Notes: generated by a model from the letters alone, not told the origin. A stretch of 64,000 bases of DNA from a virus (IMGVR_UViG_3300021431_000084); one strand, 5' to 3'. Positions 19,563-42,490 are shown, counted from the first letter of the stretch. Numbers and translations are program-made.

Positions 19563-19564
19563 AT

Positions 19565-19673
19565 TTTGGGTAAGGATTTGCACCTTACATGAGGTCATCC
19601 ATTCTTTATTTACACCGTCCTCAGACCTCTTAATGCACGGTCACGAACTGTGTCTACCTATTCCGCCACCAAA
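19565..19673 (-). ncRNA. Anticodon-less tRNA-like RNA, copy A
   Basis: GTGGCGGAATAGGTAGACAC D-arm...GTAAGG-TGCAAAT-CCTTAC T-arm; homologous to 33826 and 34318. Confidence 0.65.
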
Positions 19674-19893
19674 GTTTATTATTCTAACTTATCATCATAA
19701 TCATCAACATAAAATCTATCATCATCATAATAAGTGCTTAACATATATCTTAAATCAAAGGCTAAATCTTGGATATGTAATTCCCGACTTTCATTTTCTA
19801 TTTTAGTCAAACCACTCCAACATCTTTCTATAAGAGCATCACGATTATCAGCACCCAATTTATTGTTTAATTGATATTTAGTTCTCATAATAA

Positions 19894-20403
19894 TTACTCC
19901 CAATCAATATCTTTCTTCAAAAGCTCCATAATAATTAGGTTACGATAATTACCTGTTCTATCTCTCATGTAACCTGTGAGCTGGATCTTGTTCTTCTCAT
20001 AGGCGCCGGCCGCAAACTCCACTATCTTTTGGTATCCTAAGCCTGCTTTATTATCGCTTACATATCTAAATTCAATTCTACGAGGATTGAGATATAAAAT
20101 CTGTTTAATAATATCTACAATACCTAATGCCATTGTCATTTTATATTTACTATTTTGATTAAAACAAATTAAACCAAAATTACAAACTTGATGTGAATAA
20201 AAGTCAACTCTATAACTAACATATCCAACAATCTCACCATCCTCTTGGTTTACAATAGCAAATTGATATTTTCCATCTTCTTCTTTCATGGTCCATTCAT
20301 AGTTCTCAATACACCCATTATAGAAGATGATTTCATCAGTATATAAATAGTTTTTAAATAAGGCTTCAACTTCACTCTTGCGGCTTATGGCTGGAACTAA
20401 CAT
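19894..20403 (-). CDS. GNAT (RimJ/RimL-like) acetyltransferase-fold protein
   Basis: FAIV...GEIVGYVSY, R.IEF..V..N.A...Y.K, G..RD..G.Y....I.E pattern. Confidence 0.6.
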   Translation of the reverse strand: MLVPAISRKSEVEALFKNYLYTDEIIFYNGCIENYEWTMKEEDGKYQFAIVNQEDGEIVGYVSYRVDFYSHQVCNFGLICFNQNSKYKMTMALGIVDIIKQILYLNPRRIEFRYVSDNKAGLGYQKIVEFAAGAYEKNKIQLTGYMRDRTGNYRNLIIMELLKKDIDWE

Positions 20404-20584
20404 AAATATCTATTCTCTCCTCGACCTTCATTATCTTATCAACACAATAATCTATGTATTCATAAGGTACATCTTTTACAAAACCTCTAAATACAAGTTC
20501 ACCCGAATAATGAATTCCAATTTTATCTCCAAGTTTTGGAATTAAATTAAGTAAATCGCCAAGTTGAATTATTTTATACTCCAT
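20372..20584 (-). CDS. Small paralog family (L..LL..I...F.G...DVPY)
   Basis: Pattern shared with 20594, 53925 and 58924. Confidence 0.55.
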   Translation of the reverse strand: MEYKIIQLGDLLNLIPKLGDKIGIHYSGELVFRGFVKDVPYEYIDYCVDKIMKVEERIDIYVSSSHKPQE

Positions 20585-20593
20585 ATTTACTCC

Positions 20594-20857
20594 TTAAATT
20601 ATACTAATTATTAGGCAAGGTATTGTTTGTCCTTCATATTCCATAGATTTAACCCAACACTTACTTACACTATATGGTTCTGAATATTTAAAAGGTACAT
20701 CGCCTGCTTTTCCAATAAATTCTATATTATCTCTTGTTGTTTCAAAGGAATAATTAGTTGAGCAATGAGTTAACACAACCATTTCTTCCCAAGAAATTCG
20801 AGTTAATAATTCTTTTAAAGGCAAATAATCTTCTTCAATAGTTAAACAAGCCGCCAT
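20594..20857 (-). CDS. Small paralog family member
   Basis: LKELL..I...FIGKAGDVPF. Confidence 0.5.
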   Translation of the reverse strand: MAACLTIEEDYLPLKELLTRISWEEMVVLTHCSTNYSFETTRDNIEFIGKAGDVPFKYSEPYSVSKCWVKSMEYEGQTIPCLIISII

Positions 20858-20860
20858 AAT

Positions 20861-21112
20861 TTATTCTCCAAATACCTCGTTAAGTATATCATATATTTCT
20901 TCTGGTGTATTGCAGACATCATATGCTCTCTGAATAGTGTACAGCTGTGTTAGCCAATCTGCTACTTGTCTGTCACGATCAGCATATCTTAGCTCTTGGG
21001 CTGCAGAACTATCAAAACTATCTCTTGCGAATCTATGAGCCTGCTCCACATGCTCCATAGCAGAATTTTGTAAATTTCCAATTTCCTTTTCTATTTCATT
21101 CATAATTTTCAC
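20861..21112 (-). CDS. Hypothetical protein
   Basis: Helical ORF with AGGAG RBS. Confidence 0.55.
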   Translation of the reverse strand: MKIMNEIEKEIGNLQNSAMEHVEQAHRFARDSFDSSAAQELRYADRDRQVADWLTQLYTIQRAYDVCNTPEEIYDILNEVFGE

Positions 21113-21115
21113 TCC

Positions 21116-21631
21116 TTATATAATTTCGGCTCTTTCCTTAAACTTTTCTTCAGCAAATTCTTCTGCTTTTATATCACCAGCTTTTATTATTAAACCTCTA
21201 TCTTTTCCAGATTTAGTCCAATAGTAAAATGTACCCGCATAGGCATTTTCATTTATAATAACCGTGCACTCATACACTCCATCTGCTTCTGGTAAATGAG
21301 TAACATAGCACCCATCAAAACCATTTTCCTTTTCCAGTTCACCGTGAAGATAAACATAAGGAGTTGCTTTGAAGGTATAATCTTTAACTCCTATAACCTT
21401 TACATAATCTACTATGGTAACAAAATATACACTCCAAGAACCGAAGTCGCAATAAACTTCTCCCCTGTCTCCCAACCAGCTACGAGTGAAATGAGGGTTA
21501 GAAAAACCCCATTTTTCCATTTCTTCTAAACGAGCCTTGTAATATTCTTCATAGGAGAAATATTCGCCTATTTTAGTACGACTTTTAATACCTTCTGCTG
21601 GATATTCAAGATATAACATATATTTCTTCAT
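21116..21631 (-). CDS. Hypothetical protein (RSW...DFGSWS motif)
   Basis: N-terminal half resembles 33567..33782; own promoter. Confidence 0.6.
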   Translation of the reverse strand: MKKYMLYLEYPAEGIKSRTKIGEYFSYEEYYKARLEEMEKWGFSNPHFTRSWLGDRGEVYCDFGSWSVYFVTIVDYVKVIGVKDYTFKATPYVYLHGELEKENGFDGCYVTHLPEADGVYECTVIINENAYAGTFYYWTKSGKDRGLIIKAGDIKAEEFAEEKFKERAEII

Positions 21632-21759
21632 AGGGCATATTTCTCCTTTATTTTATATATATATTATATCACAATTTTTTATTTTTGTCAATAAAGAATT
21701 TTTTGACACAGTGGTGGCTCTTTTTGGTTTTACTACATAAAGAGCTTGAAAAAGTAGGG

Positions 21760-22086
21760 TTAATTACATACTTTTAGTACAATATTTATATCTACATCTG
21801 GTTTTTGTTGAGGTGCAATAAATGTAAGCAATCCATCACAACTAAAGTTATATGTAATATAACCAAACTGCTCCATTATTTGTTTATCTTTTTCCTCATC
21901 TCCCGTAGAAACCAATCCGACTACCTGATAATCTACATTCTCCTCGGGGATATCCATTATGATACAGTACGACGATGGAACACAGTCCGCCCAATTATCC
22001 TTATTAAGCGTAAAGTAAATCTCATTTGTATCATTAGGAAATAATATAAGTTCTTTAGGTATATCAATTCTTTTAATATCTGACAT
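21760..22086 (-). CDS. Tail-associated small beta protein
   Basis: Last gene of the tail operon; L....W...G.LTF.A....P..DI.I pattern. Confidence 0.5.
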   Translation of the reverse strand: MSDIKRIDIPKELILFPNDTNEIYFTLNKDNWADCVPSSYCIIMDIPEENVDYQVVGLVSTGDEEKDKQIMEQFGYITYNFSCDGLLTFIAPQQKPDVDINIVLKVCN

Positions 22087-22097
22087 ATTAACTCTCC

Positions 22098-22853
22098 TTA
22101 TGATAAGTTCTTTATTCCTACTACTGAAGTTATAATATAGTTAGATGCAGAAGTATTTGGAGTAATATCTCCACGAGTAATACCACTTGTAGTTGCTGTT
22201 AATGAAATAGAATAACAGTTACTAAGCACCCATCCATAATTCCTACCCATAACGCCAGCAGCACGTGCGCCACCACCAACAGGCAACATACAACTTCCTT
22301 GTGGCTGTTCGGGGTAATCAGCAGTAGTTTTTAAAGTCACATAAACCCATTTGTATGCAGATAAATTAACCGATATATTGCCGGTACTACTACCACTCCA
22401 TGCAGTCACACGAGAAGCCGTAGGAACGTTTACAGTAACTTTAGAAAAACCTAATTTTCCACTCGATGGTGTATATGTACCATTTGAAGTAATAGATTTC
22501 GTTTCAGTAGCCTGATTAACGCTAACTGTTACTTTAGAGAAACCTATTTTACCTGAAGAAGGTGTGTATGTACCATTTGAGGTAATAGATTTCGTTTCAG
22601 TAGCTTGGTTGACATTAACAGTAACTTTAGAAAATCCAACTTTACCACTCGATGGGGTATAAGTACCATTTGCAGTTATTGATTTTTCTTCAGTAGAAGC
22701 ATTTACATTAACAGTTACTTTAGAATATCCGTCTGCATCGTCGCTCGTGGCATTATATGTACCATTAGCCGTTATTGTTTTCTCTTTTAAAGTGGCATCT
22801 GGGCCACTTCCGAATATAAAATACTCGTGTCCATTATGTACTATTTTTGGCAT
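22098..22853 (-). CDS. Adhesin-like tail protein with about 4 KSITxNGTYTPSSGKxGFSKVTVNV repeats
   Basis: Tandem ~31-aa repeats; MPKI..NG.EY N-terminus. Confidence 0.65.
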   Translation of the reverse strand: MPKIVHNGHEYFIFGSGPDATLKEKTITANGTYNATSDDADGYSKVTVNVNASTEEKSITANGTYTPSSGKVGFSKVTVNVNQATETKSITSNGTYTPSSGKIGFSKVTVSVNQATETKSITSNGTYTPSSGKLGFSKVTVNVPTASRVTAWSGSSTGNISVNLSAYKWVYVTLKTTADYPEQPQGSCMLPVGGGARAAGVMGRNYGWVLSNCYSISLTATTSGITRGDITPNTSASNYIITSVVGIKNLS

Positions 22854-22864
22854 ATGTTACTCCT

Positions 22865-23530
22865 TTAATGTATTCGTTTCCAAGCATACTGCCCTATCGG
22901 ATAGCCAAGTTCTATAACAGTACAGCAGGGTGCTTCTGTATTACCACCCTCTTGAAAATTTATTGGGCCAGAACCAACATGAACTCTAAATTTATAAGTA
23001 TGCTGACCTGCGGAAACACCTTTATCTAAATAAACAATACCACCATCGCCGTTATATGAATTTCCGCCACTGCATTGTACCGTTCGAACGGCTATTTGTG
23101 AGCCATCTCGAAATATGTATAGTGAAAACCAAACCGCCGTAGCTGATAGAGGGTTAGCATCTGCATCAAAAGCTAACAACACAGGATTTCCATTAGTTGT
23201 TACCACAATATTTTTATCCGTATCAACCCCGCTTGCAACATTGGTTAACCCCGTAATTCTTTCACATGCATTTGCAATATTAACCGCCGTCCAAGTTGTC
23301 CCACTTAACCACGTACTCGGATTTGCGCTTGATGAACTTGTAAGAATAGACCCAACAGGATAGATAATATCAACAATAGATGGTGCATCTGTAATCACAT
23401 AAAGAGTACCATTATTTTTCTGTTCAGATGGTAAAGCATCATATTCTGCTTGGGTTATTTCAATTGTTATAGTATTACCGGTGCCACCACTACCCGCGTA
23501 TTCTATACCATTAAGCATTATCTTAGGCAT
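22865..23530 (-). CDS. Tail fiber/baseplate-like protein
   Basis: MPKI..NGIEY, EITQAEYDAL..K.NGTLY.ITD, IYPVGSI and AWKR motifs (gp10-C/collar-like). Confidence 0.65.
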   Translation of the reverse strand: MPKIMLNGIEYAGSGGTGNTITIEITQAEYDALPSEQKNNGTLYVITDAPSIVDIIYPVGSILTSSSSANPSTWLSGTTWTAVNIANACERITGLTNVASGVDTDKNIVVTTNGNPVLLAFDADANPLSATAVWFSLYIFRDGSQIAVRTVQCSGGNSYNGDGGIVYLDKGVSAGQHTYKFRVHVGSGPINFQEGGNTEAPCCTVIELGYPIGQYAWKRIH

Positions 23531-23544
23531 ATTTTATCCCCCCA

Positions 23545-24363
23545 TTAAACGTAAGTCATTGTATTTGCTATATTAAGAGTACCGGTTGCTGTACTATAAT
23601 TATAAATTAAAACAGTTCCATCAGTTTTAATGTTAAACCTTATAGCCACATCATCCGCAGAAGGAACAAAAAGAGTCTCATAAACATCCATCTGTGGTCT
23701 AAAATTAGTGGGGAGGGTAAAGTCAAGTGTTGTATACGCTTTAGCAGTTAAATTTTTTGGATCAACAATACGCACAATCTTAATTCCATTTATTTCAGTA
23801 AAATAAAATTTTCCATAATTAGAGGTTCTTTGATCAAATACCTCTACCCATCCGTATTGAGTATAATCAACCATTCTCCAAGACGTACCATCATAAGTAA
23901 ATGATATAACTTGATTATTATTCCACGATTCATATGGATTTGTGCTAGGACTTACAGTGCCATATCTATAAATAAGTTTTGCCCCTGTACCACTAACATT
24001 GAGTGTTGGAGAAGTAGCACTATTTGAATTGATAAATAATACTCTAATAGATACGCCTGCAATAAGATTAGTTGAAGAAAAACCCAATATATTTACTTCC
24101 TTCTCCGCCACATCGGCATTTGTATTACAAACACCATAAAAAGCAGTATCAACAGAAGAAGAACTGTCTGTAATACAGTACATAGTACCATTGTTTTTCT
24201 CGTCTTCACTCAAAGCATCATAATCGGCTTGAGTGATTTCTACTATCTTTCCTTCGATTTCATCTATTTTATCAGCTACAGTTTTCGTAGGACTATATTG
24301 TACTTGATTGGCAGTAGTAGCTGTACCGCCATATTCTATTCCATTTCTTATTATTTTTGACAT
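23545..24363 (-). CDS. Tail fiber-like protein
   Basis: SKIIRNGIEY, EITQADYDAL, PTLNVSGTGAK..YDG..W, TLP..FRP C-terminus. Confidence 0.65.
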   Translation of the reverse strand: MSKIIRNGIEYGGTATTANQVQYSPTKTVADKIDEIEGKIVEITQADYDALSEDEKNNGTMYCITDSSSSVDTAFYGVCNTNADVAEKEVNILGFSSTNLIAGVSIRVLFINSNSATSPTLNVSGTGAKLIYRYGTVSPSTNPYESWNNNQVISFTYDGTSWRMVDYTQYGWVEVFDQRTSNYGKFYFTEINGIKIVRIVDPKNLTAKAYTTLDFTLPTNFRPQMDVYETLFVPSADDVAIRFNIKTDGTVLIYNYSTATGTLNIANTMTYV

Positions 24364-24440
24364 ATGATGGTCTCCTTAAATATCTGAAAGTTTCAAAACC
24401 ATTGACGGAACATATAGAATCAAGTTCTTAGTTATTCTCC

Positions 24441-24956
24441 TTATTCCGAAATCCACCAACCCTGCCCCCATAGCCTCATATTTGCGGTCGGAGAATATAC
24501 TTGTATAAGACCATCGGTTGTGATTCGGCATTCTGCATTATTGAAGCCTCCTGCTTCATCTACTAAATAGAACTCCATTATTCCCTTTGGTTTATGACCT
24601 TCAGGAACTGTTGCCTGAGTCACCCACCCTGAACCAGCATTTACCGTAGCGAAATAGAGTCTCAAAGAGTGAATTTTTCCGTAAATCGTACATTGATTGT
24701 CCCTCAGTGCCGCACTTCCTGTGGTCGTTACAAAATTATTAACAAACTGCGTCGTTAGCATTTCCGCCACACTCGTATTATCACTCGTACTCATAGCTAT
24801 TTCAGTAGCTAAAGGAGCACCTGCTTGTGCATCAGTAATATAGTAGTCAACTCCATCAGTCAATTTACTTGAGGGTAAAGCATCATATTGAGCTTGTGTA
24901 AGTTCTACTGAATTATCTCCAAAGTATTTTATTCCATTTCTGATTATATATCCCAT
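24441..24956 (-). CDS. Tail fiber-like protein
   Basis: YIIRNGIKY, ELTQAQYDAL, VPEGHKP..I..DG.I. Confidence 0.6.
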   Translation of the reverse strand: MGYIIRNGIKYFGDNSVELTQAQYDALPSSKLTDGVDYYITDAQAGAPLATEIAMSTSDNTSVAEMLTTQFVNNFVTTTGSAALRDNQCTIYGKIHSLRLYFATVNAGSGWVTQATVPEGHKPKGIMEFYLVDEAGGFNNAECRITTDGLIQVYSPTANMRLWGQGWWISE

Positions 24957-24959
24957 AGA

Positions 24960-26009
24960 TTATGCATCCTTTATATATAAAACATCTAAACGTAGTGTTG
25001 TGGTAAGACTTCCCGTGGTATTGTTCCTATAGTAAACTCTTGCAGTAGATGAATTAGCCAAATAGAAGTCAGAATATGCCAAACCTGATGTACCACTACC
25101 TGTAATACCGACAATCCCGATTGCAGTATATCCAGCTTTTGTAATTGTAATATCCACATAGCTATTTGTCGCTGCAGCTATTACAAATTGAGCAGAAGCT
25201 ACTCGCGTTACACTGAATAAATTTCTAACGATAGCAGAAACAGTATCGGAACTTGCTTTGTCTGCAACTTCATCAATAGCACCCTGAACATTAGTAGCAC
25301 TTAAACTGCTATCAGAATTATCATACATTACTTGAGAAGCGGTAGCTACATTTGGATTATTAGTATCTTTGATATAATAAGTAACATCTGATTCTAAAGT
25401 TCCGGCTTGCTCCCAAGTATCATATTGAGCTTGTGTACACTCTATATAAGTAGTCTTGTCATCTAATGTATCGGATAATGATGTACTTCCATTAAATGTA
25501 AGATCTCCTGCAATAGTTTCATTACCTTGCCAGTCAAGTGTACGAGCATTGGAACGAGTATTAGCAGTACCGTTACCTATGATTTCTGCGTAAGTATTAT
25601 TATTGTCTGCAATATTATATCTACCACTCACATGTTGGGCAGACCCCGCTGCAATTGTATGGTTTCCTTCAGCATGAGAATAAACACCACTTGTGGTTGT
25701 ATAATTTCCTTCAGCATGTGAACTACTACCAGAAGCAGTAGTTTGTGACCCTTCTGCATGAGAATAATAACCAGAAGCAGTAGTTTGTGACCCTTCTGCA
25801 TGAGAATGATTACCAGAAGCAGTAGTATTATAACCTACAGCCACAGAATCAGCACCAATAGTAGTACTAGCTTTTCTATTTAAACTCAAACTACCACTAC
25901 CTGTTGGATTAACCTTATCCATCTTGTTAGATAAATCACTACGGGCTTTAAGGTCTTTAATATCATACTCATTACCATCAGGTGTTGTTATCTTACTAAT
26001 ATCAGCCAT
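24960..26009 (-). CDS. YadA-like head (SHAEG repeat) tail fiber protein, short
   Basis: About 4 TTASG.xSHAEG repeats; SNARTLDWQGNE; TQAQYD motif. Confidence 0.75.
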   Translation of the reverse strand: MADISKITTPDGNEYDIKDLKARSDLSNKMDKVNPTGSGSLSLNRKASTTIGADSVAVGYNTTASGNHSHAEGSQTTASGYYSHAEGSQTTASGSSSHAEGNYTTTSGVYSHAEGNHTIAAGSAQHVSGRYNIADNNNTYAEIIGNGTANTRSNARTLDWQGNETIAGDLTFNGSTSLSDTLDDKTTYIECTQAQYDTWEQAGTLESDVTYYIKDTNNPNVATASQVMYDNSDSSLSATNVQGAIDEVADKASSDTVSAIVRNLFSVTRVASAQFVIAAATNSYVDITITKAGYTAIGIVGITGSGTSGLAYSDFYLANSSTARVYYRNNTTGSLTTTLRLDVLYIKDA

Positions 26010-26022
26010 ATTATCACCTCAT

Positions 26023-26574
26023 TTACGGAGTATATGACACAGTACCACTTGCAGGTGTGCCTGTGAATGTGGGGGCGGTTGCTTCATACTCCGCATCACC
26101 CGTTTTAGCTTGAACCGCCGTGGCAAGAGTAGGAACTGCACCAGCTGTAATAATAAGTCTCTCACCCTGTACGGTGTATGTCGGCATAGAGCCTGCATTT
26201 GTAACACCTGTAATAGGTGTCGTAGCACCTGCTGTCTTTACAGAAATACCTGGGGCGGACACATTACCTGTTGCTACTGTACTTACGGATACGCCGTCCT
26301 TATAAGCGAGTGCCCCAAGTGCCCCAAGGTCACCAAAAGCTGCCCAAGCCGTACCATCAAATATAAATTCACTATTACCATAAAGGGCAATGCCACCTGC
26401 TTCTGCTGTCACACTCTCCCCATTTATCGTAATGGGGTTAGTTGTTGAACCGTCGGAAAGAGGTGTTGTTGTTTTACCGAGGTACTTTGTAAAGCCCTCA
26501 AGATTGTCAACACGACTATCTCTTAAATCATATACGCTACCACTCGGCAATTCGATTTGACTTAAATTTGGCAT
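26023..26574 (-). CDS. Tail fiber-associated protein
   Basis: YLG.TTT.L.DG.TTNPI.I.G, W...GDL..LG.LAYKD, PTFTGT. Confidence 0.6.
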   Translation of the reverse strand: MPNLSQIELPSGSVYDLRDSRVDNLEGFTKYLGKTTTPLSDGSTTNPITINGESVTAEAGGIALYGNSEFIFDGTAWAAFGDLGALGALAYKDGVSVSTVATGNVSAPGISVKTAGATTPITGVTNAGSMPTYTVQGERLIITAGAVPTLATAVQAKTGDAEYEATAPTFTGTPASGTVSYTP

Positions 26575-26587
26575 AATTAAATCTCCT

Positions 26588-27085
26588 TTACTTTGTTGTA
26601 AATATCAACCGTTTATCATTATTAGGATCTATATAACACCTAACTTTATCGTTCCAAAAATTTCTTTCTTCTTGAGTTATGTGAATGACAGTATTATTAA
26701 TGTGTTCAACAATCTCATCGTCAGTAAACGGTAAATCAATTAAATATGCTTTACCATCACCGATCTTAATAGCAGGCTTTCCATCTCTATAATCTGAATA
26801 AATATAAATAAACCCTGCTTTAGAAAGAGTTTTTGGTTTACTGTTCCATGTTGCTGTTGAAGCATACAATACTTTGCAATCTCCTCCTTCAACAACATAA
26901 ACAGTACCAAAAGATGCTTCTAATGGTAAATTTTCACCAAAGGAAATATCAAGAGTCTGATCAATACCATAATCAGCATCAATAACTTCATTTGTCTTTA
27001 AATCAACATTTACATTAGGTGGTGATGATCCTATTTTTGTATCTAAACTTGGATTAGAATTAAAATTAATTGGGAGTTCATTCAC
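26588..27085 (-). CDS. Tail protein with hyaluronidase/Mtd-N-like module
   Basis: W...P......G.IYIY....KIGDG...L.DLPF; H..N..IHIT..ER..WN.K. Confidence 0.6.
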   Translation of the reverse strand: MNELPINFNSNPSLDTKIGSSPPNVNVDLKTNEVIDADYGIDQTLDISFGENLPLEASFGTVYVVEGGDCKVLYASTATWNSKPKTLSKAGFIYIYSDYRDGKPAIKIGDGKAYLIDLPFTDDEIVEHINNTVIHITQEERNFWNDKVRCYIDPNNDKRLIFTTK

Positions 27086-27398
27086 TTATAACGCCTCCCT
27101 TATAAACTTCTATAATAGATATAGACTTAGCTATACAAGCCAAAGCCGTTCCATCAGTCATTAAAAGACGAATTTGAAATAACGCACCACCTTCTTTTAG
27201 TCCTAAAGTATCATTTTGACTAAGAGTAACTTTTATGGTATGTGTGTTAGCATCAATATTAACATCTTCAATCTTTTTATCAACCACAACTCGCTTGTAT
27301 TGAGAAATATAAACCCAGATTTCGGCAACCTTGGTCAAGTCTATATCTGATTTTACATTTATTGTTATTGTTGGGGTTGTCCCTCGAATTATTTCCAT
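27078..27398 (-). CDS. BppU-like baseplate protein
   Basis: IIRGTTPT....V.LSQ.DTL.L..G....QIR pattern. Confidence 0.6.
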   Translation of the reverse strand: MEIIRGTTPTITINVKSDIDLTKVAEIWVYISQYKRVVVDKKIEDVNIDANTHTIKVTLSQNDTLGLKEGGALFQIRLLMTDGTALACIAKSISIIEVYKGGVISE

Positions 27399-27423
27399 AG
27401 ATTACCTCTTTTCTGAAAAATGA

Positions 27424-28095
27424 TTAAGTGAATTTATAACCTGTTAATACATACAATGATCCAGAGCCATAATGAGCAAAATTTATACCATCATTACTTG
27501 CCCACATTGGACCATTGGTATTATTATAACCATGGCCTACAAAACTGGTTGTTGATATTAATTCATTTACGTTGGGTTTAACTAAAAATGGACCTACTTC
27601 ATCTACATTACCACTACCAGAAATGACAGATATAAAATCATAATTGTTAATATTTTCTTCTAATACTATATTACTATTGGTACTACCGGAATGTAATATT
27701 GTTTTTGTTATTGTTTTATTCGTGCAATTAAGCCCTTCTATTTTTGAGATGAATGTATCACGATACCATCTGCGAGTAAGTGTGGTTCCATCTGTCGGAG
27801 TTATACAACAGCCTCTAGAACTATTGGATGGACAATGTGGGAAAAATCCCATATATATATTTAAATTATTACAAAGTTCATCAAATTCTTCTGGCGAAAA
27901 TATATATTCCTGATAGTTATAATATACATCACTATTGTTATATAAAGTAACTTTTAGAAAATCATAATTATGATAATCATCAGATAATGCATAAGAAGAA
28001 TCACTATAACCACTACCAGTAAATAATGTTGTTATAGAGAATATAGGCCCAGTATCTCCACCACCAGACTCTTTAACACTTCTAAAATATGCCAT
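27424..28095 (-). CDS. Tail-tip/receptor-binding-like protein
   Basis: Two TTL(F/H).G....L.D/E...NYDF repeats. Confidence 0.55.
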   Translation of the reverse strand: MAYFRSVKESGGGDTGPIFSITTLFTGSGYSDSSYALSDDYHNYDFLKVTLYNNSDVYYNYQEYIFSPEEFDELCNNLNIYMGFFPHCPSNSSRGCCITPTDGTTLTRRWYRDTFISKIEGLNCTNKTITKTILHSGSTNSNIVLEENINNYDFISVISGSGNVDEVGPFLVKPNVNELISTTSFVGHGYNNTNGPMWASNDGINFAHYGSGSLYVLTGYKFT

Positions 28096-28109
28096 GTTTA
28101 GTTACCTCC

Positions 28110-28913
28110 TTAATTAAGCCATCTAAACTTAAAGGAATTGATAGTACCTCTTTGGAATCTGCTACTATCATCTTTTGTACCACCAACTGTTAATGTGTTA
28201 GAGTCGTCAAGTGTATTATCCCAAGCTACAGAATATAAAATCTCATCTTCCATATTGTAGAAAATTAAATTTTGTCCATTTTTAAGAATTCGTATTTGTA
28301 ATGTTGTTAAATTAGCTAATGCAGATATTGTATTAGCGTTAAACATCCATCTTACAGAAGAACTTGTACTTTCATGAATAACACTTAATAATTGTCGATT
28401 AGCATATTCTAAAGACCAACGGTAAACATTGTCAGTATCGTTTATTGTAGTATCTAATAACATTTCCCAATCACGAGTTCTATTAGCTTCACTTCTTAAT
28501 TTAATTCCAGTATCTACATAAGAGGAAGCATCATAATCACTTAATTCATAATCATAAATAATTGGGTCATTATCATTGAAAAATACTAATTTTACTCTCA
28601 TATCAGAAGATTGAGCAGGATATGTTAGTACAGCATTACCACTATTTAATCTATTAGATGTATAATTTACTCCATCAATAGAAGTATATACATCAACAGT
28701 TGAATCTGGCGTAATATCTGCATTATAAATAGTTACTGATGTTTCTCCAGCGGGTAACTTGCCAAGAGCAGTTTTTCTACCTGAAGAGTTTCTATTTTCC
28801 CACTTATCTTCAGTTTCGTTATATGTTACAACTTGTCCATCTGATAAATTTGAAAAATTAACATCAGATAATTTGCTTAATTTTTCATTTTTTTCGGTTT
28901 TTGTCCAAGCCAT
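28110..28913 (-). CDS. Tail protein with C-terminal LamG/ConA-like domain
   Basis: LSKLSDV.F..L.DGQV..Y.....KW.N and L.AGETSVT segments shared with the 973-aa protein; YVDTG, L.VGG..RF..G.I..F. Confidence 0.6.
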   Translation of the reverse strand: MAWTKTEKNEKLSKLSDVNFSNLSDGQVVTYNETEDKWENRNSSGRKTALGKLPAGETSVTIYNADITPDSTVDVYTSIDGVNYTSNRLNSGNAVLTYPAQSSDMRVKLVFFNDNDPIIYDYELSDYDASSYVDTGIKLRSEANRTRDWEMLLDTTINDTDNVYRWSLEYANRQLLSVIHESTSSSVRWMFNANTISALANLTTLQIRILKNGQNLIFYNMEDEILYSVAWDNTLDDSNTLTVGGTKDDSSRFQRGTINSFKFRWLN

Positions 28914-29048
28914 TTATTTTCTCCTTTCTTGCGGCGAGCTGGTCCTGAGAACTTTTTAATTAGTTCTTGAGTATCTCAGGACCACCGGCCGCACGTTCTT
29001 TAATAAAAAGACTTATGTAATTTCAAGATAATTATTAATTAACATGAT

Positions 29049-29345
29049 TTACGCGGAAGGTAGTCCTGTTTCTGAGCTTCCTCCACAAGCTGTGATTCCT
29101 GCATCATAGTCTATCATCGAAGTTCCAAGAGCGTTCTCCTGTTCTTTATTGAGAAGATAACATCCATCGAACCACTGCGAAAGCGGCATTATCTTTCCCT
29201 GCTCCATCATGGAATGGAAATTACCTGCACCGATTGCATTCTGCACCCACGGTGTAATGTTGTTCTTCTTCTTGCCCGAAGAGAAGTCAATATGCTTGAA
29301 CTTATCGTAAGAAAATTGAAGTTCTGTATATCCCTGTAAAGCCAT
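29049..29345 (-). pseudogene. Truncated N-terminal fragment homologous to 11478..13112
   Basis: LQGYTELQF...KNNIT...IMPLSQWFDG...ITACGG aligns by eye with IKGHTKIIL...DNMIT...LLPIRQLFGG...LVAHAG, then stops at 98 aa. Confidence 0.55.
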
Positions 29346-29350
29346 TCTGT

Positions 29351-29842
29351 TTATCCTCCTGTTGTAAATCCTGTCAGATTGAAAATTTCATAGTTAGCAT
29401 CGTAAAGAGTTTCTTTTGTCGCTTCGGTCTCTCCCCCAATCGCCATCGAGCCTATGAAATTCAAATAGCAATTCGTGTGCGAGCCTGTCCATCCATAGAA
29501 TATTTCTATCGTATCGCCTGCATTGAAATCAATAGCCGTGAAATCATCAAGAGTAACTGTCGAGCTTGTCGGAAGAGCCTTATTGTAAACCTCCGTTCCG
29601 TTCTTCTCTACCGATAGATATGCGTGATTGCTTCCGCAGTTCGTGATAGCGGTCGAAGCCGTATCCATCATAAAAGAACCACTCGAAGTGCAATCTATGT
29701 GTAAAAAAGGCTTGGCAGGATTTAGGTCATACAAGCCTGTCGCTCCATAAGAAAAATGAAGAGCAACCGAAGAAGCTCCGCCGCCGCTCCCCAGATGCAC
29801 ATTCCCGAAAATCGTCTGTCCGTTTATTATTGCTTTTGCCAT
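29351..29842 (-). CDS. Small tail-tip-like protein
   Basis: MAKAIINGQTIFG N-terminus resembling the family motif; AGGAGG RBS. Confidence 0.55.
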   Translation of the reverse strand: MAKAIINGQTIFGNVHLGSGGGASSVALHFSYGATGLYDLNPAKPFLHIDCTSSGSFMMDTASTAITNCGSNHAYLSVEKNGTEVYNKALPTSSTVTLDDFTAIDFNAGDTIEIFYGWTGSHTNCYLNFIGSMAIGGETEATKETLYDANYEIFNLTGFTTGG

Positions 29843-29852
29843 TTTAGCCTCC

Positions 29853-32774
29853 TTATGCAAGAGTTATAATTTGTTGTTCATACATAATTTGAATTGAGCA
29901 AGGGGTATTATTTAAGTTAGATGGCGCATTAACATTTGCCTGAACAAATAAACCCATCCCGTTTGAACTCACGCTGTATGAATTAGATATCGTTGAAAAC
30001 TTCGCATTATCAATAAGATAAGAACCATCTATCATTCTGATTGTCATCTTTACATCATTTAGAGATATATTCCTTATTCCCGTTTCATTAAAGGGTTTGT
30101 TAAGTGGAATATAAAATCTCAAACTTTTAGCACTTGAAGTAATGTAGCCTGCCGAGACAATTCCAGCTATTAACACATTGTCTCCAACATGATACATAGA
30201 ATTAGATAGTAATTCCGCTATCTGCCCATTTGCATCAGCAATCCCTTCATCTATTGTTCTTGTATCTGTACTCGATACTTGTATATCTTCTCCTGTCGTC
30301 TCTGCATTGGTCTGAATGTAAATAGTGCCGTTATTCTTCTCGGCTGTTGTTAGTGCTTCGTACTGTGCTGTCGTCAATTCTTTGACGGGATGATACTCTT
30401 CATCGAGGCAATACATTTTCGCATTATCGGTTATCTTATAAATCGAACCATTCATCTTCTCAACCGATGTGAGAAGGTCATATTCAGCTTGTGTTTTTTG
30501 GATTACTATTTTACTAAGTGCTTGTGTTACTGACTGATTACCATTGATTGTCAAATCGCCAGCGAGTACCTCATTACCTTGCCAGTCAAGTGTACGAGCG
30601 TTGGAAAGATTCTTACCATCAATACCATTACCGACTATTTCTACATATGTACCCTTTTCAGTAGCAGGATTAGTAGATTCGTCTAATATATTACATGTAC
30701 CAAATACATGCTGAGCATAGTGAGTGGCAGTTGTATTGTACCCTTCAGCATGAGATAAATCACCACTTGCGGTTGTATAATTTCCTTCAGCATGTGAATT
30801 ACTACCAGAAGCAGTTGTACTTTGTCCTTCAGCATGAGAACTAATACCAGTTGCATGCGTACCATAACCTTCTGCGTGAGCATAATTTTTAGTAGCTGTG
30901 GTAGCTGCACCCTCTGCATGAGAATCAGTCCCGGAGGCAGTTGTATTAGATCCTTCAGCATGAGAAGATTCACCAGAAGCAGTGGTATAAATGCCTTCAG
31001 CATGAGAATTAACCTGAAAGGCTTTGGTATAATATCCTTCTGCATGGGCTCTTTGATAAGTAGCCTGTGAATAATAACCTTCTGAATGAGAATAATCTCC
31101 AGAAGCAGTGGTACCAACACCTTCTGCATGAGAACAAACACCAGAAGCAGTAGTATTATAACCTTCAGCATGAGCATTTTCCGCGTTAGCTTGAGAACTA
31201 CTACCTTCTGCATGAGAGTAGTTGCCTAAAGCAATGGTATTAGCCCCTTCCGCATGAGAACCTTGACCAGAAGCTTTGGTATAATATCCTTCTGCATGGG
31301 AGCTTTGACCAGAGGCAGTAGAATTTTGACCTTCAGAGTGTGCAGCAGTTTGTGTTGTTGTAGTGTAACTTCCTTCTGCATGACTATATTGTCCTTTTGC
31401 AGTTGAATTTCCTTCAGAGTGAGAATATGTCCCTTCTGCTTTACTATAATTTTCAGCGTGAGAGGATCCTCCTAATGCTTGAGAACTACTACCTTCTGCA
31501 TGAGAGTAGTCACCCACTGCCACAGTACGATAGCCTTCTGCGTGAGAACCCTGGCCAGGAGCATTAGTTTCACAACCTTCTGCATGAGCATAAGGTTTAG
31601 AAGCAGTTCCCTTACCCTCTGCATGGGAATAGTCACCAGCAGCTACTGAACTATTACCTTCAGCATGAGAAGAATCACCATAAGCAGTGGTACCACTACC
31701 TTCTGCGTGAGAATTGGCCCCAATAGCTTTAGTGCTATAACCTTCTGCATGTGCATAAGAACTAGAAGCTGTGGTGCTATTACCTTCTGCATGAGAACCA
31801 GTAGCAGAAGCTGTAGTACCGCCACCTTCTGCATGAGAGTAATAGCCAGAAGCCTCATTACCTTCACCCTCAGCTACAGAATTAAGACCAATAGCTGTAC
31901 CGGCTTTTCTATTCAAGCTCAAACTACCACTACCTGTAGGATTAATTTTATCCATCTTATTATTAACATTAGTAAAAATATCAGACAAAGAAACTTCCTG
32001 CCATTTGGTTGGGTCAAATTCCTCTCCGGGGTCAGGTATTGCAGTAATATTTATATAATACTTATCATTATGAATAGTCAAATCTCCTACACTATAAGAA
32101 GAACTATTATCATATTCATCAGCAAATTCAGTTTTATCTACTTTCTTTTCTGATTCTTGTGCAATTTTAGTACTTGACCAAGTTGAATTAAGATTTGTTT
32201 CGTCATCATCAATTTCTACTCCAGCCGTACCAACTCCCTTAATCCAAACACGCGCCATTACTGGCATATCATTTTCTTGTTCAGGGAAAGTATAAGTAAC
32301 ACTTCCATCTGTTACTTCTCTGGATATATATTCAACTCCATCAAAAGCATCATCTACATAATCTTCAATGACAGAATTAGCTGTAATATAATCACTTGTT
32401 AAAGTGACAGTGGTTTCACCGGCCGTTAATATACCTTGTAATTCAGCATATATGTCTTTTCCGGTACCATTTTTCCACATACCAGATTCTACATCATATA
32501 CAAGATATTCTCCATCTTTGAGTTGACTAAGATTTACGTCAGTAAGTCCACTTAAGGCTGAAGCTCCACCAGAGCCACCACCAGTAATTATCTCGACCCA
32601 TTGACCTTTACTATTATACATATAGGTCTTTTTAGAATCAATAACATATACTGTACTACCCGGGGCGATTGCTTCTCCATTGTCTTCAAATGGAATATCA
32701 TCTAAGGTATCGCACAAATAATGTTTAATACCATAACTTATTTTTCCACTATTAGCAATTATAAATAAAGCCAT
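29853..32774 (-). CDS. Large tail fiber/adhesin with YadA-like SHAEG head repeats
   Basis: More than 20 tandem 13-14 aa ..A.G..SHAEG repeats; two (K/L)T.A.Y..L..EK.NG.IY motifs. Confidence 0.85.
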   Translation of the reverse strand: MALFIIANSGKISYGIKHYLCDTLDDIPFEDNGEAIAPGSTVYVIDSKKTYMYNSKGQWVEIITGGGSGGASALSGLTDVNLSQLKDGEYLVYDVESGMWKNGTGKDIYAELQGILTAGETTVTLTSDYITANSVIEDYVDDAFDGVEYISREVTDGSVTYTFPEQENDMPVMARVWIKGVGTAGVEIDDDETNLNSTWSSTKIAQESEKKVDKTEFADEYDNSSSYSVGDLTIHNDKYYINITAIPDPGEEFDPTKWQEVSLSDIFTNVNNKMDKINPTGSGSLSLNRKAGTAIGLNSVAEGEGNEASGYYSHAEGGGTTASATGSHAEGNSTTASSSYAHAEGYSTKAIGANSHAEGSGTTAYGDSSHAEGNSSVAAGDYSHAEGKGTASKPYAHAEGCETNAPGQGSHAEGYRTVAVGDYSHAEGSSSQALGGSSHAENYSKAEGTYSHSEGNSTAKGQYSHAEGSYTTTTQTAAHSEGQNSTASGQSSHAEGYYTKASGQGSHAEGANTIALGNYSHAEGSSSQANAENAHAEGYNTTASGVCSHAEGVGTTASGDYSHSEGYYSQATYQRAHAEGYYTKAFQVNSHAEGIYTTASGESSHAEGSNTTASGTDSHAEGAATTATKNYAHAEGYGTHATGISSHAEGQSTTASGSNSHAEGNYTTASGDLSHAEGYNTTATHYAQHVFGTCNILDESTNPATEKGTYVEIVGNGIDGKNLSNARTLDWQGNEVLAGDLTINGNQSVTQALSKIVIQKTQAEYDLLTSVEKMNGSIYKITDNAKMYCLDEEYHPVKELTTAQYEALTTAEKNNGTIYIQTNAETTGEDIQVSSTDTRTIDEGIADANGQIAELLSNSMYHVGDNVLIAGIVSAGYITSSAKSLRFYIPLNKPFNETGIRNISLNDVKMTIRMIDGSYLIDNAKFSTISNSYSVSSNGMGLFVQANVNAPSNLNNTPCSIQIMYEQQIITLA

Positions 32775-32809
32775 TTGTTTACCTCCTTTTATTTTTATTC
32801 TCTAATTTA

Positions 32810-32850
32810 ATATGAAAATTATATTTTTGTTTCTATTTTATTTCGCCCAA
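32810..32850 (-). promoter_or_regulatory. Candidate late promoter TTGGGCGA-N25-TTTCA
   Basis: Heads the tail/adhesin operon, which has no TTGACA/TATAAT promoter and is preceded by a terminator (32853-32890). Confidence 0.55.
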
Positions 32851-32906
32851 CGAAAAAAGGTGGGATTGATTAAACAATCCCACCCAAAAAATTTTTTTAT
32901 TTAAAT

Positions 32907-33374
32907 TTAAAAATATCTTTCTAATGTTTCTTCTGGTATTTTCAAAACCTCACCAGTTTTCTTATCTCTTCTCTCCATACTTAAAATTTTATCTGTTCCA
33001 TCTTCATCTTTTCCTATTAGGAATAAATGATTATATTTATTATTAAGAATAGTATTATTTATTATACATTTACCTTTTGTAATAAAATTATGATTAGTAA
33101 AAAACCATTGTCCCCTATCATACCAAACCAACTGTACATCAAACAAATCCCACATTGGATCAGAATAACCCCAACATACCGGTCGCAAAGTATTAATATC
33201 AATTACCATATCGCTTGCTTCTTCAACAAGAGGGATATTATAATCACTTTCTTGAGTTCTTGAGAATTTTACATATTTACCATTTCTAATAATATGAAGA
33301 TTATAAGGTGCCTGTCTTAAAGTTTCAAACCAATCAATATCACTTCTCATAAAATTAGCAATTAATGATTCCAT
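32907..33374 (-). CDS. Degenerate T4 Rnl1-like RNA ligase N-terminal homolog
   Basis: W...L...PYNL.I...G.YV.F...Q.SD...P.V.EA...ID..T.RPVC resembles Rnl1-family N-termini; no KxDG motif visible. Confidence 0.4.
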   Translation of the reverse strand: MESLIANFMRSDIDWFETLRQAPYNLHIIRNGKYVKFSRTQESDYNIPLVEEASDMVIDINTLRPVCWGYSDPMWDLFDVQLVWYDRGQWFFTNHNFITKGKCIINNTILNNKYNHLFLIGKDEDGTDKILSMERRDKKTGEVLKIPEETLERYF

Positions 33375-33566
33375 ACTTTTTACTCCTTTTCTATCATCTA
33401 TATATATTATATCATAAAATTGAAACGTTGTCCATAGAAATTTTTTATTTTCACTATATTTGCTCTCAAAATTTTGAAGAGCAGTTTTTGTTCAGGACAC
33501 GGTTCTTCGTTTGGGTGCGGTGCAAGCAAAACAAAATAAAAAAAAGGGAAGATATTACATCTTCCC

Positions 33567-33782
33567 TTAATTTATCTTCTTAACCAAATATGTCGACCAA
33601 GAGCCAAAGTCAGAATAGGTTTCAGAAGGATCTGTTTCACTTATCCAACTTCGCCAATACTTTGATACTGTTTTAAACTTTTTTTGAATTGCTTCTTGTG
33701 CGGCCTTGTAGGCGTCCTTCTCAGTGTTGTAGTCCCCGAGATGCTCACGGCGGCCCGCACGCTCAAAATATATCGATATCAT
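33567..33782 (-). CDS. Hypothetical protein (DFGSWS family)
   Basis: Start reset to MISIYFE after an AGGAG RBS; the longer ORF-track version overlaps the ncRNA. Confidence 0.6.
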   Translation of the reverse strand: MISIYFERAGRREHLGDYNTEKDAYKAAQEAIQKKFKTVSKYWRSWISETDPSETYSDFGSWSTYLVKKIN

Positions 33783-33825
33783 ACTTATTCTCCTTTTGGT
33801 CAAAAAGTTCCCCAATGCGGTTTTA

Positions 33826-33979
33826 ATCTTGAAGATAAGGATTTGCACCTTATATAGCAATACTATTTCAACTATGGATTCGTGTTGTCGTTTCACCAAC
33901 ATCGGTTTAGTTTCCTGTCTTTTCGACAATCAATAATTGCCTTACCTTTAAGCGTCTACATATTCCGCCACTTCAAGAT
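33826..33979 (-). ncRNA. Anticodon-less tRNA-like RNA, copy B
   Basis: ATCTTGAAG/CTTCAAGAT terminal stem, GTGGCGGAATATGTAGACGC, ATAAGG-TGCAAAT-CCTTAT. Confidence 0.7.
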
Positions 33980-33982
33980 ATT

Positions 33983-34059
33983 TGGGTGGATAGACTGGAC
34001 TTGAACCAGCAACTACCGGTTCCACAGACCGGGGTTCTACCTATTGAACTACTAACCAC
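33983..34059 (-). tRNA. tRNA-His(GTG)
   Basis: Cloverleaf, CTGTGGA loop, G-1, CCA. Confidence 0.9.
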
Positions 34060-34064
34060 ATATT

Positions 34065-34276
34065 TAGATACAGTATAACTCGGCGCGGTTTACCACACCA
34101 CAAAAGTTAAGGTTAGCAAAATACTTTGCCCATATAGAACTGGCAATTGAATTACGACACGATACATTCAGGATCAGACTCAGACACTTCCGTGCGCTTT
34201 AGCCAAATGTACGATTCAACTCTATACGAAAATCGTTCGCCTCGGTTACCAGCCATTAAACGCCATACTGTATCTA
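34065..34276 (-). ncRNA. Candidate ~210-nt structured RNA
   Basis: Perfect 12-bp closing helix TAGATACAGTAT/ATACTGTATCTA, between RNA genes. Confidence 0.5.
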
Positions 34277-34317
34277 CTGGTGACAAGTTTTTGAAAAGAT
34301 ACCTGACAAACTTTATA

Positions 34318-34464
34318 GTCTTGAGGGTAAGAATTTGCATCTTACATAATACACTTTCAGCATTGGTTTTCATCACTTGCATACGGTAAGTCAATGTTAT
34401 GCCCACAGGACGTTGTGTATCTTCCCATCTTCATCAGCGTTTACCTATTCCGCCACCTCAAAAT
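34318..34464 (-). ncRNA. Anticodon-less tRNA-like RNA, copy C
   Basis: TTTGAGG/CCTCAAG stem, GTGGCGGAATAGGTAAACGC, GTAAGA-TGCAAAT-TCTTAC. Confidence 0.7.
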
Positions 34465-34778: not shown

Positions 34779-35270
34779 CTACTTACTATACTTATTAGCA
34801 ATACCACTTGCGGTATAACTATAAGGCTTAATCAAACAAGTGTAACCGCAAGCAGTTACCCACTTTGTGATTTCATTTATTAACATAGAAGTCTTTCCAT
34901 CTTGTCCAATATCACAATGAATTTGGAAAGTTAAGTCGAGATTATTTATATCAATATCGTATTCATATAAAGCCAACTCTAACTTGTCAACCAAGCCATT
35001 AGCAATCTCAAGACTTCTTGATGTTTCGGTACTGATTTTTTGCTTCAAATTAGAAATTTTACGCATATATTCTATATTATAGAAATATATACCACCATGA
35101 CCTAATCTGTGTACCGCTATAACCTCAACCATTTTTGTTTGTCTGTGGTTTTGGCTATCAGTACCAACAGTGAACTCATAAGTTGCATTAGGTTGGTCAG
35201 CGATGTACTTAGCTATCTTGTTAATAATCTGATCTTCAGTCATTTCTTGACCAGAAGCTGACCTAAACAT
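34779..35270 (-). CDS. RNase H-like YkuK/DUF458 family protein
   Basis: VGTDSQ, HR.G.GG.YFY, IH.DIG..G.T, IKP.S..AS..A.K. Confidence 0.85.
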   Translation of the reverse strand: MFRSASGQEMTEDQIINKIAKYIADQPNATYEFTVGTDSQNHRQTKMVEVIAVHRLGHGGIYFYNIEYMRKISNLKQKISTETSRSLEIANGLVDKLELALYEYDIDINNLDLTFQIHCDIGQDGKTSMLINEITKWVTACGYTCLIKPYSYTASGIANKYSK

Positions 35271-35466: not shown

Positions 35467-35577
35467 TGGTGCACGAGGTAGGACTCGAACCTACACACTA
35501 CCCATAGTATCTAACATATACCGCGAATCTAATATTAGACTTGTGGGTTAGCCGTCTTCCTGTTGCGGCACTCGTCC
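35467..35577 (-). tRNA. Leu-type tRNA body with expanded/interrupted anticodon arm
   Basis: Acceptor (one mismatch), D-arm, long variable arm, T-arm and ACCA present; the anticodon loop is replaced by about 31 nt containing a hairpin. Confidence 0.65.
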
Positions 35578-36376: not shown

Positions 36377-36473
36377 ATGACCCGAAGTGCTACGGGATTC
36401 GAACCCGCAATGTTTGATTAGCAGTCAAATTGTTTACCATAAACGAGCGTTTTGATTTGCTGATAAGGGTCAC
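36377..36473 (-). ncRNA. CAGCAA-stem RNA E2 enclosing Ser(GCT)-like D/anticodon/T arms
   Basis: GTGACCC/GGGTCAT stem, TCAGCAA, TTTGA-CTGCTAA-TCAAA, GCGGG-TTCGAAT-CCCGT; no CCA. Confidence 0.7.
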
Positions 36474-41663: not shown

Positions 41664-42395
41664 TTATGCGTAAATAACTGTTTTATCTTCAAGGCGAATT
41701 GCCGCAAGCTTTCCTCCTGCGAATACACACCCACAATCTATATTGATACTATGTTCTCTGAAATATACATCAGACTTATTAGTATCATTCCATACAAATT
41801 GTGTAGGTGTATGCCCATGAATAAGAATTTCCTCATGCTCAGGCACATAATCATTGGTTAATACATTCGTATAATTGTTAATATCACGATACCAAAGAAT
41901 ATCATCACGATTAAGATTAGGACCATACCAAGCATGAGCAATTATATAATCTTGTTTATCTTTAATACTAACCTTTTTATATAAAGGCAAAGAAGAAAAC
42001 CAATCTACTATTGGTTTTACTGAAGCAACTGTATCAAACCCAGCTTCAGACATATAAGACACAAAGTCATAAGTACAATCAAGAGCTGAAATATCAAAAT
42101 CGTCCATACTTTGTATAGATGGAGAACACCAACCTTTTAAAAATCTACGATAACAACGATTATAATCATTGATTATATTGTCCTCATGATTTCCACATAT
42201 CATTTGGTATTTACCATCTTCGGTGACATGCTCCATGGCCCATTGAATCATTTTATATGACTCAACTCCACGGTCAATAATATCACCTATCAAAATGATA
42301 CAATCATCTGGTTCAATATCAGGCATTGATAAGAGTTTCATAAATCTTGTATAACAACCATGAATATCACCAACAACCCAAGTAGCCATAAACAT
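41664..42395 (-). CDS. PPP-family Ser/Thr phosphatase-like metallophosphoesterase
   Basis: GDIHG, GDIIDRG, GNHE, HGHTP, IDCGC. Start reset to MFMATW (the ORF-track start overlaps tRNA-Cys). Confidence 0.88.
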   Translation of the reverse strand: MFMATWVVGDIHGCYTRFMKLLSMPDIEPDDCIILIGDIIDRGVESYKMIQWAMEHVTEDGKYQMICGNHEDNIINDYNRCYRRFLKGWCSPSIQSMDDFDISALDCTYDFVSYMSEAGFDTVASVKPIVDWFSSLPLYKKVSIKDKQDYIIAHAWYGPNLNRDDILWYRDINNYTNVLTNDYVPEHEEILIHGHTPTQFVWNDTNKSDVYFREHSINIDCGCVFAGGKLAAIRLEDKTVIYA

Positions 42396-42412
42396 ATCTC
42401 CTTTCTTTAATT

Positions 42413-42490
42413 TGGAGCTAATGGTGGGATTCGAACCCACGAAACAACAGTTTTGCAAACTGAGGGCTTAAACCACTTACCTACATTAGC
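42413..42490 (-). tRNA. tRNA-Cys(GCA)
   Basis: TTGCAAA loop, U73, CCA. Confidence 0.85.

Follow-up and report, generated by a model that had tools for sequence, protein, structure and literature searches.

A tRNA-like handle lets the tRNA machinery release and stabilise a variable RNA in the RNase P-processed antisense RNAs c4 of phages P1/P7 and CI of P4, as well as in engineered tRNA scaffolds. Phage tRNAs counter tRNA-targeting defences, and the Y RNAs YrlA and Yrn1 tether bacterial Rsr to RNase or RNA substrates. Bacterial Y RNAs mimic tRNAs and lie no more than 4 kilobases (kb) from Ro60; the Ro-binding stem of YrlA is made by its two ends, and a loop closes its acceptor-like stem (PMC4201824). 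The Ro60 of a Thermus phage binds phage Y RNAs (PMC12135203). Here we analyse a 64,000-nucleotide (nt) stretch of viral DNA (IMGVR_UViG_3300021431_000084, hereafter the window) and three elements in it that an earlier note, made from the sequence, had described as anticodon-less tRNA mimics with an outsized variable arm. We show that hundreds of phage and prophage members, these three among them, form one family.

Three tRNA-like elements in the window

A 20-mer from the D region and a 17-mer from the T arm each occur exactly three times in the window, always on the minus strand (chance expectation ~0.01 and ~0.12, respectively), and these matches place three copies with a shared D region and T arm where the earlier note had located them (Table 1). 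From 5' to 3', each element comprises an acceptor strand, UG, a D arm of the form GCG-GAAUAGGUAGA-CRC, 61-98 nt of intervening sequence, (A/G)U, a T arm and the second acceptor strand. The T arm of the window copies reads (G/A)UAAG(G/A)-UGCAAAU-(C/U)CUUA(C/U), with a stem of 6 base pairs (bp), and the acceptor strands are paired in all three copies (CUUUGG/CCAAA(A), CUUGAAG/CUUCAAG and UUUGAGG/CCUCAAG in copies 1, 2 and 3, minus-strand sequence). Minimum free energy folds recovered the T arm in 3/3 copies, the acceptor stem in copies 2 and 3, and the three helices that had been named as closing the long arm (GAGGUC/GACCUC, GCAAU../..AUUGC and AUACAC/GUGUAU).

The elements lie among 32 tRNA genes called by ARAGORN, which are on the minus strand throughout. 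In copy 1 the 3' acceptor strand runs to 19563, flush with G+1 of a tRNA-Cys at 19562, and copies 2 and 3 each start 5 nt after an encoded CCA, that of tRNA-His for copy 2 and that of tRNA-Ser for copy 3. Neither ARAGORN nor Rfam 15 (gathering threshold and E <= 5) made any call, tRNA or other, at the three elements. None of the three encodes CCA, as had been noted, in comparison to 31 of the 32 window tRNAs; the companion statement that every true tRNA gene in the window does so fails at one doubtful call of 69 nt. This sole ARAGORN tRNA without an encoded CCA, a 'tRNA-Ser(gct)' at 36384-36452 on the minus strand that scores 35 bits in Rfam, is probably degenerate or another mimic.

A family across phages and prophages

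Scanning IMG/VR with the T-arm 17-mer returned at least 120 loci, and a Leu-type D arm was present 30-250 nt upstream in 86 of the 122 matches listed. We defined membership as an exact T-arm pattern together with pairing at five or more of the seven acceptor positions. An acceptor stem could be located in 92 members (the IMG/VR matches listed plus the window), which are 81-233 nt long. The stem was paired at 7/7 positions in 75 of these 92, with ~70 different stem sequences, and CCA was encoded in none of them.

A covariance model (R1) built from a 50-sequence alignment (A2) scored members outside its seed at 40-90 bits; the three window copies, which belonged to the seed alignment, scored 74-77 bits with E values of ~1e-16. 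The model also recovered members that depart from the pattern, with GCAAGG/CCUUGC T stems (Enterococcus phage EfV12-phi1), with the T loop UGAAAAU in Listeria phage A511, and with UGCGAAU and canonical UUCAAAU T loops in tandem arrays, where two to four different members stand side by side. The model search that the earlier note had suggested as a check on its proposal yielded full-length members across many phages and prophages. At the elements of nine further family loci, Rfam 15 gave no family match at either gathering or permissive thresholds.

Table 1. Coordinates of the three elements and of associated features in the window
Feature	Position	Strand	Size and model R1 score	5' acceptor strand	D arm	Stretch between D and T arms	T arm	3' acceptor strand	Other
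Copy 1	19563..19675	-	113 nt; 76.0 bits, E 2.4e-16	19675-19669	19666-19650	19649-19589 (linker + long arm)	19588-19570	19569-19563	U8G9 19668-19667
Copy 2	33827..33977	-	151 nt; 74.4 bits	33977-33971	33968-33952	33951-33854 (insert)	33853-33835	33834-33828	Discriminator A 33827
Copy 3	34319..34462	-	144 nt; 77.4 bits	34462-34456	34453-34437	34436-34346 (insert)	34345-34327 (stem GUAAGA/UCUUAC)	34326-34320	Discriminator A 34319
Stretch between tRNA-Ser and tRNA-His	34059..34318	-	260 nt						Gained or lost jointly with copy 3 (alignment with L193)
Ro60-like protein, DUF2828 + vWA	39557-41056	-	499 amino acids						Inside tRNA array; Pfam PF11443, PF25043 (DUF7788/vWA)

Covariation and an invariant tRNA core

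In alignment A2, 98.3% of cells were paired, in comparison to 35-45% when the 3' partners were slid by one to three columns. Changes on both sides of a pair were found at all seven acceptor pairs, at the outer T pair (pair 6) and at D pair 11-25, so that the acceptor-stem covariation first seen in three copies holds in the family alignment. No variation is seen at U8, A14, A15, G19, the U before the T stem (equivalent to U48), U54, C56 and A58, and almost none at G18. The tRNA parts that are retained are an acceptor/T-arm helix of 7 + 6 bp and a D stem of 3 bp. The anticodon arm has given way to a linker of ~5-20 nt; constrained folds show this linker and no anticodon hairpin, and the sequence flanking the insert has no 5-bp stem with a 7-nt anticodon loop left in it.

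These compensatory changes and invariant core bases, found across hundreds of phages, show purifying selection on the non-decoding form, and covariation together with G-U pairs on the predicted strand indicates that RNA rather than DNA is the object of selection. As judged from these comparisons, we conclude that this is a real, selected and widespread RNA family with an invariant tRNA core and a hypervariable, exchangeable arm.

The insert between the D and T arms

Across the family members listed, inserts range from 28 nt, the shortest, to 220 nt. When 77 non-redundant members were folded with their stems fixed, 43 formed a helix closing exactly 2 nt ahead of the T stem, and the D arm was followed by a single-stranded or weakly paired linker, often ~10 nt long. 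In these folds the insert has the geometry of a class II variable arm from which the anticodon arm has been deleted, and the arrangement described from the window copies, with a short segment in place of the anticodon arm and a long arm preceding the T arm, holds across the family. Some members have a further expansion in the D loop, which is flanked by repeated AAUAG and contains a covarying helix (ACAnnn/nnnUGG). The 77 inserts are mildly more structured than shuffled sequences (mean folding z -0.89, p 5e-7), and motif enrichment in the inserts was limited to a (U/C)CAU junction ahead of the T stem and to weak signals for GUGUAC and GCGGAG.

Gain, loss and exchange of the elements

As a close relative of the window phage we used a contig, L193, with a Ro-like protein 87% identical to that of the window. 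The orthologue of copy 2 (L193:16177-16327) is ~96% identical and contains a compensatory T-stem change from UAAGG/CCUUA to UGAGG/CCUCA. L193 lacks copy 1, the difference being a clean insertion or deletion of ~115 nt with AAT microhomology, and it lacks copy 3 as part of an insertion or deletion of 404 nt with AAATAT at its flanks. The 260-nt stretch within the latter has no homologue in any locus fetched and no convincing open reading frame (ORF). A homologue of copy 3 is present in a Coprobacillaceae metagenome-assembled genome (L166:6465-6609), with 82% identity and compensatory changes in the acceptor and T stems. In the same alignment with L193, the tRNA-His gene next to copy 2 (window 33983-34058, minus strand, versus L193:16097-16171) is strongly diverged whereas the flanking tRNA-Ser and copy 2 are ~95-100% identical, which suggests that the tRNA-His gene itself has been replaced between the two phages.

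The earlier note had also claimed that a conserved scaffold carries unrelated inserts, and pairs of related members bear this out. Prophages L041 and L063 share 98% identity both in the scaffold and in 150 nt of upstream sequence, whereas the insert and the downstream sequence are 59% identical, the background level. In L052 and L056 the inserts are identical, the acceptor stems differ and the flanks are unrelated (~60%). From these identity patterns we infer that the invariant 20-nt D-arm and T-arm sequences may serve as recombination points, with the arm behaving as a cassette. Presence of the element also varies within Listeria Pecentumvirus: A511 and P100 have a member and CKA15 and AG20 have none, which indicates that the element is dispensable for laboratory growth and fits an accessory role.

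Hosts and genomic settings

An exact 19-mer was present in 67 of 185,579 species-representative genomes, mostly of Bacillota (Weissella, Leuconostoc, Pediococcus, Levilactobacillus, Bacillaceae, Paenibacillus, Lachnospiraceae, Megasphaera, Erysipelotrichaceae), and nearly all of these matches were full-length matches to model R1. GenBank phages with a member include Leuconostoc phages of the LN34 type, where it lies near the genome end, Lactobacillus phages phiJL-1, LP65, LpeD and ATCC 8014-B2, siphoviruses of Weissella, Paenibacillus and Listeria, Enterococcus Schiekvirus (EFDG1) and Listeria A511/P100; in none of these records is the element itself an annotated feature.

About 40% of the members listed sit in tRNA arrays. 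The remainder stand alone, typically between the early/regulatory region and genes for HNH, TerS and TerL, and several of these have a promoter-like sequence a few nt upstream (judged by eye) or an intrinsic terminator 10-20 nt downstream. When we looked for a conserved neighbouring protein, HNH, TerS and TerL recurred in prophages, and the genes immediately downstream were heterogeneous. Three large phage contigs with family members (L034, L048 and L096) also encode tRNAs with a CUA anticodon, of the amber suppressor type, which hints at stop-codon recoding in those phages.

The window has a G+C content of 36% and looks like a piece of a large phage genome, ~140 kb in size; its Ro-like protein occurs on contigs of up to 140,619 bp, and a nucleotide search of GenBank phages found no close relative. 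Two further oversized tRNA-like genes on the minus strand (35470-35577, 108 nt, and 42500-42616, 117 nt) combine canonical T loops of the UUCGA type with an encoded CCA and with long inserts at the position of the anticodon, and are a class distinct from the three elements; the gene at 42500-42616 scores 40.5 bits with RF00005. In or beside the tRNA array, on the same strand, are genes for an RNase H-like PF04308 protein, a calcineurin-like phosphoesterase and a full sigma-70 family factor (34779-35270, 41664-42458 and 44999-45793). A relative, L195, encodes a Thg1-like protein.

A Ro60-like protein encoded in the tRNA array

The tRNA array of the window also contains a gene, on the same strand as the elements and 5-20 kb from them, for a protein of the DUF2828 family (Table 1). 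A sequence-profile search against the PDB missed Ro60, and the likeness was detected only by a fold search: with an AlphaFold2 model of the protein (pLDDT, the predicted local distance difference test, 87.9), the top 13 Foldseek matches in the PDB were all full-length matches to Ro60/TROVE structures (E 1e-7 to 2e-4, template modelling score 0.4-0.6), among them Thermus phage Ro60, Xenopus and human Ro60 and Deinococcus Rsr. Homologues are present in 709 GenBank phage records, with the annotation 'Ro-like RNA binding protein' in mycobacteriophages, and the homologue in CKA15 was matched to Rsr by HHpred (PMC12282133). Given this predicted fold, the protein is a candidate partner of the RNAs, and a candidate only.

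A proposed role as non-decoding RNAs that present a swappable arm

We propose, with a probability of roughly 55%, that the three elements encode non-decoding RNAs of class II tRNA-Leu origin, released by tRNA processing and presenting a swappable arm. In the window phage, the elements would be transcribed together with the tRNA array and freed by tRNA-processing enzymes; cleavage of tRNA-Cys by RNase P would leave copy 1 with a 3' end that has no single-stranded tail. The conserved tRNA shell could provide for folding, processing and stability and offer a surface to tRNA-binding proteins, and the variable arm could be a lineage-specific module that is swapped among phages by recombination at the D-arm and T-arm sequences. 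The RNAs would act in trans and be accessory rather than essential.

Several observations weigh against this proposal. The membership criteria (exact T-arm pattern, at least five of seven pairs) inflate the apparent invariance, that of the T arm most and the paired fraction slightly. Of the 92 listed members, 46 have A and 37 have U directly after the acceptor stem, and this stem is often extended to 8-9 bp; with such variation, canonical recognition by RNase P, RNase Z and leucyl-tRNA synthetase is not assured. The window inserts are no more stable than shuffled sequences (z +1.1, -1.0 and +0.2), so the arm may be tolerated filler rather than a functional module. Exact matches of at least 12 nt between an insert and its own locus, whether sense or antisense, did not exceed those in 25 control loci, and the phage with a published transcriptome (CKA15; PMC12282133) is one that lacks the element.

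The proposed payload function of the inserts as guides, antisense RNAs or decoys, which the earlier note had put forward, likewise finds nothing in its favour among the computations. The complementarity that was to be looked for between inserts and the phage's own DNA did not appear as long exact matches, and in the scan of own loci the sole exact insert matches above the control loci were those between related elements. In IMG/VR, exact 17-18-mers revealed no homologue for two of the window inserts, and the match of the third was a chance match inside a coding region. As to the carrier itself, we consider an RNA shell for a variable module a reasonable inference from the sequence comparisons and the best available frame.

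It is unusual for a structured RNA to combine an extremely conserved tRNA core with an arm that is hypervariable and recombines, and this hints that the arm is a specificity module under diversifying pressure. A broader picture, which we offer as doubtful, is that Bacillota phages use a natural 'tRNA scaffold' system, in which the host tRNA machinery excises and stabilises the Leu shell, a swappable arm (aptamer, decoy or guide) sets which host or rival factor is bound, and the Ro60-like ring may assist in large phages. If this were true, cassette exchange and multi-arm arrays would record an arms race. At the least, a common RNA gene has been missed by phage annotation pipelines, and it is present in well-studied or applied phages (Listeria A511/P100, therapy candidates of the Enterococcus EFDG1 type, dairy Leuconostoc and Lactobacillus phages) and in many prophages from gut and rumen. 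Natural isolates that differ in carrying the element (A511 versus CKA15, the window phage versus L193) make the question directly testable.

Alternative explanations

The elements could instead be decoys or sponges, in which the elbow and acceptor helix mimic tRNA and absorb a host factor that recognises these parts, such as an anti-phage tRNA nuclease or a nucleotidyltransferase, and the insert is unconstrained filler. Function does appear to be concentrated in the invariant shell, with the length (28-220 nt) and the sequence of the arm free to vary. Members are accessory and are gained and lost between close relatives, and their occurrence in temperate and lytic phages of many Bacillota fits a role in defence or counter-defence. 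However, an RNA that has neither anticodon nor CCA cannot mimic the two sites that most tRNA-targeting toxins attack. A filler is also hard to reconcile with inserts that are on average more structured than their shuffles and with the helix placed 2 nt before the T stem in over half of the non-redundant members, and the wholesale exchange of cassettes suggests that the arm matters. We consider the decoy explanation unlikely.

A Y-RNA-like role, in which the elements partner the Ro60-like protein and tether the DUF2828/vWA ring to RNase or RNA substrates, draws on the described Y RNAs that mimic tRNAs near Ro60 and on the phage Ro60 that binds phage Y RNAs, as well as on the position of the Ro60-fold gene within the tRNA array of the window. 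Proximity recurs elsewhere. The two genes are adjacent in three lineages: a member precedes the Ro-like gene by 36-47 nt on its strand in L083 and L096, and comes within 0.5-1.2 kb of it in L009 and L088. In Enterococcus Schiekvirus and Listeria A511 both are found within 3-4 kb on one strand. But L083 and L096 are a single lineage, and tRNA arrays attract both types of gene. The co-occurrence is not obligate, as two 100%-complete phage genomes (150-159 kb) and 5/5 small phages or prophages have the RNA but not PF11443, and a FelixO1-like phage with the protein has no member within 22 kb. The elements also have no YrlA match in Rfam and differ in topology from YrlA with its Ro-binding ends and loop-capped 'acceptor'. 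We regard Y-RNA-like partnership as improbable. A hyper-abundant non-coding transcript has been reported upstream of the Ro-like gene in CKA15 (PMC12282133), and this transcript (L198:3230-3810; record 26,236-26,727) is not a family member by model R1.

We give little credence to the elements being cis-acting, whether as processing or stability signals for neighbouring mRNAs or mainly as DNA-level recombination junctions between modules. Many stand-alone members stand 10-30 nt ahead of the ribosome-binding site of the gene that follows, typically at the boundary before HNH, TerS and TerL, and breakpoints of mosaicism fall within the element; yet the downstream genes vary, the ~40% of members in tRNA arrays have no adjacent ORF, some members appear to have a promoter or terminator of their own, and the G-U pairs on the predicted strand and the covariation point to selection at the RNA level. 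That the elements are decaying or interrupted tRNA-Leu genes, either pseudogenes or genes from which an intron or insertion is removed to restore a working tRNA, is very improbable, for although the D and T arms are clearly tRNA-Leu-like and the D loop of some members contains a second insertion with AAUAG repeated at its flanks, the flanking 'exons' contain no 5-bp stem and 7-nt anticodon loop, even the shortest insert is 28 nt, Rfam reports no group I intron or tRNA match, the D-loop insertions themselves hold a covarying helix, and the compensatory changes and invariant core show purifying selection on the present form.

Comparison with known systems

The elements share with class II tRNA-Leu (RF00005) a 7-bp acceptor stem, U8, a D stem of 3 bp whose loop is GAAUAGGUAGA, positions A15/U48 and G19/C56, U54-A58 of the T loop and a long arm that directly precedes the T arm. 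Their D arm is close to those of the window's own tRNA-Leu and of the EFDG1 tRNA-Leu. Unlike tRNA-Leu, they have no anticodon stem-loop and no CCA, their first base is usually U or A, their 6-bp T stem gives a stack of 13 bp, and most members have G55 in place of U55. As candidates for ordinary tRNAs they were rejected: ARAGORN made no call, RF00005 gave no match at E <= 5 and there is no anticodon hairpin. Nor do they qualify as tRNAs with a group I intron, which is ~200 nt or more, given inserts of 28-220 nt and no Intron_gpI match in the Rfam scans.

With YrlA-type Y RNAs (RF02553) the elements share a non-decoding tRNA mimicry and D-like and T-like arms, and in the window a Ro60-fold gene is part of the tRNA array, although across phages the pairing of RNA and Ro-like gene is not obligate; unlike in YrlA, their ends form the acceptor stem, and with this different terminal-stem topology and no covariance-model match at E <= 5-10 they were rejected as YrlA. 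Like the tRNA-like domain of transfer-messenger RNA (tmRNA), they keep an acceptor and T arm and have a large insert in place of the anticodon arm, but they keep the D arm fully and have no CCA; ARAGORN called no tmRNA, and no tmRNA-like tag frame was seen when the sequences of the three copies were read. Since the defining features of each are missing, the family falls outside tRNA, YrlA, tmRNA and intron-containing tRNA. The c4 and CI antisense RNAs differ in turn, as the elements have no Rfam C4 match and no complementary target near the gene by exact matches.

T4 species 1 and 2 (rnaC and rnaD) are similar in being stable RNAs of ~120-140 nt that lack an annotated function and lie where a tRNA cluster ends. 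T4 rnaC ends in a canonical T arm with a UUCGAAU loop and has no Leu-type D arm, and both were rejected as members: neither shows sequence or model similarity, and in T4 model R1 matches only true tRNAs, at 15 bits or less. The family with this shell was itself not found in Rfam 15, in GenBank annotation or in the literature searched; the known kind to which it belongs is that of the tRNA mimics, together with Y RNAs, tmRNA and T4 species 1 and 2.

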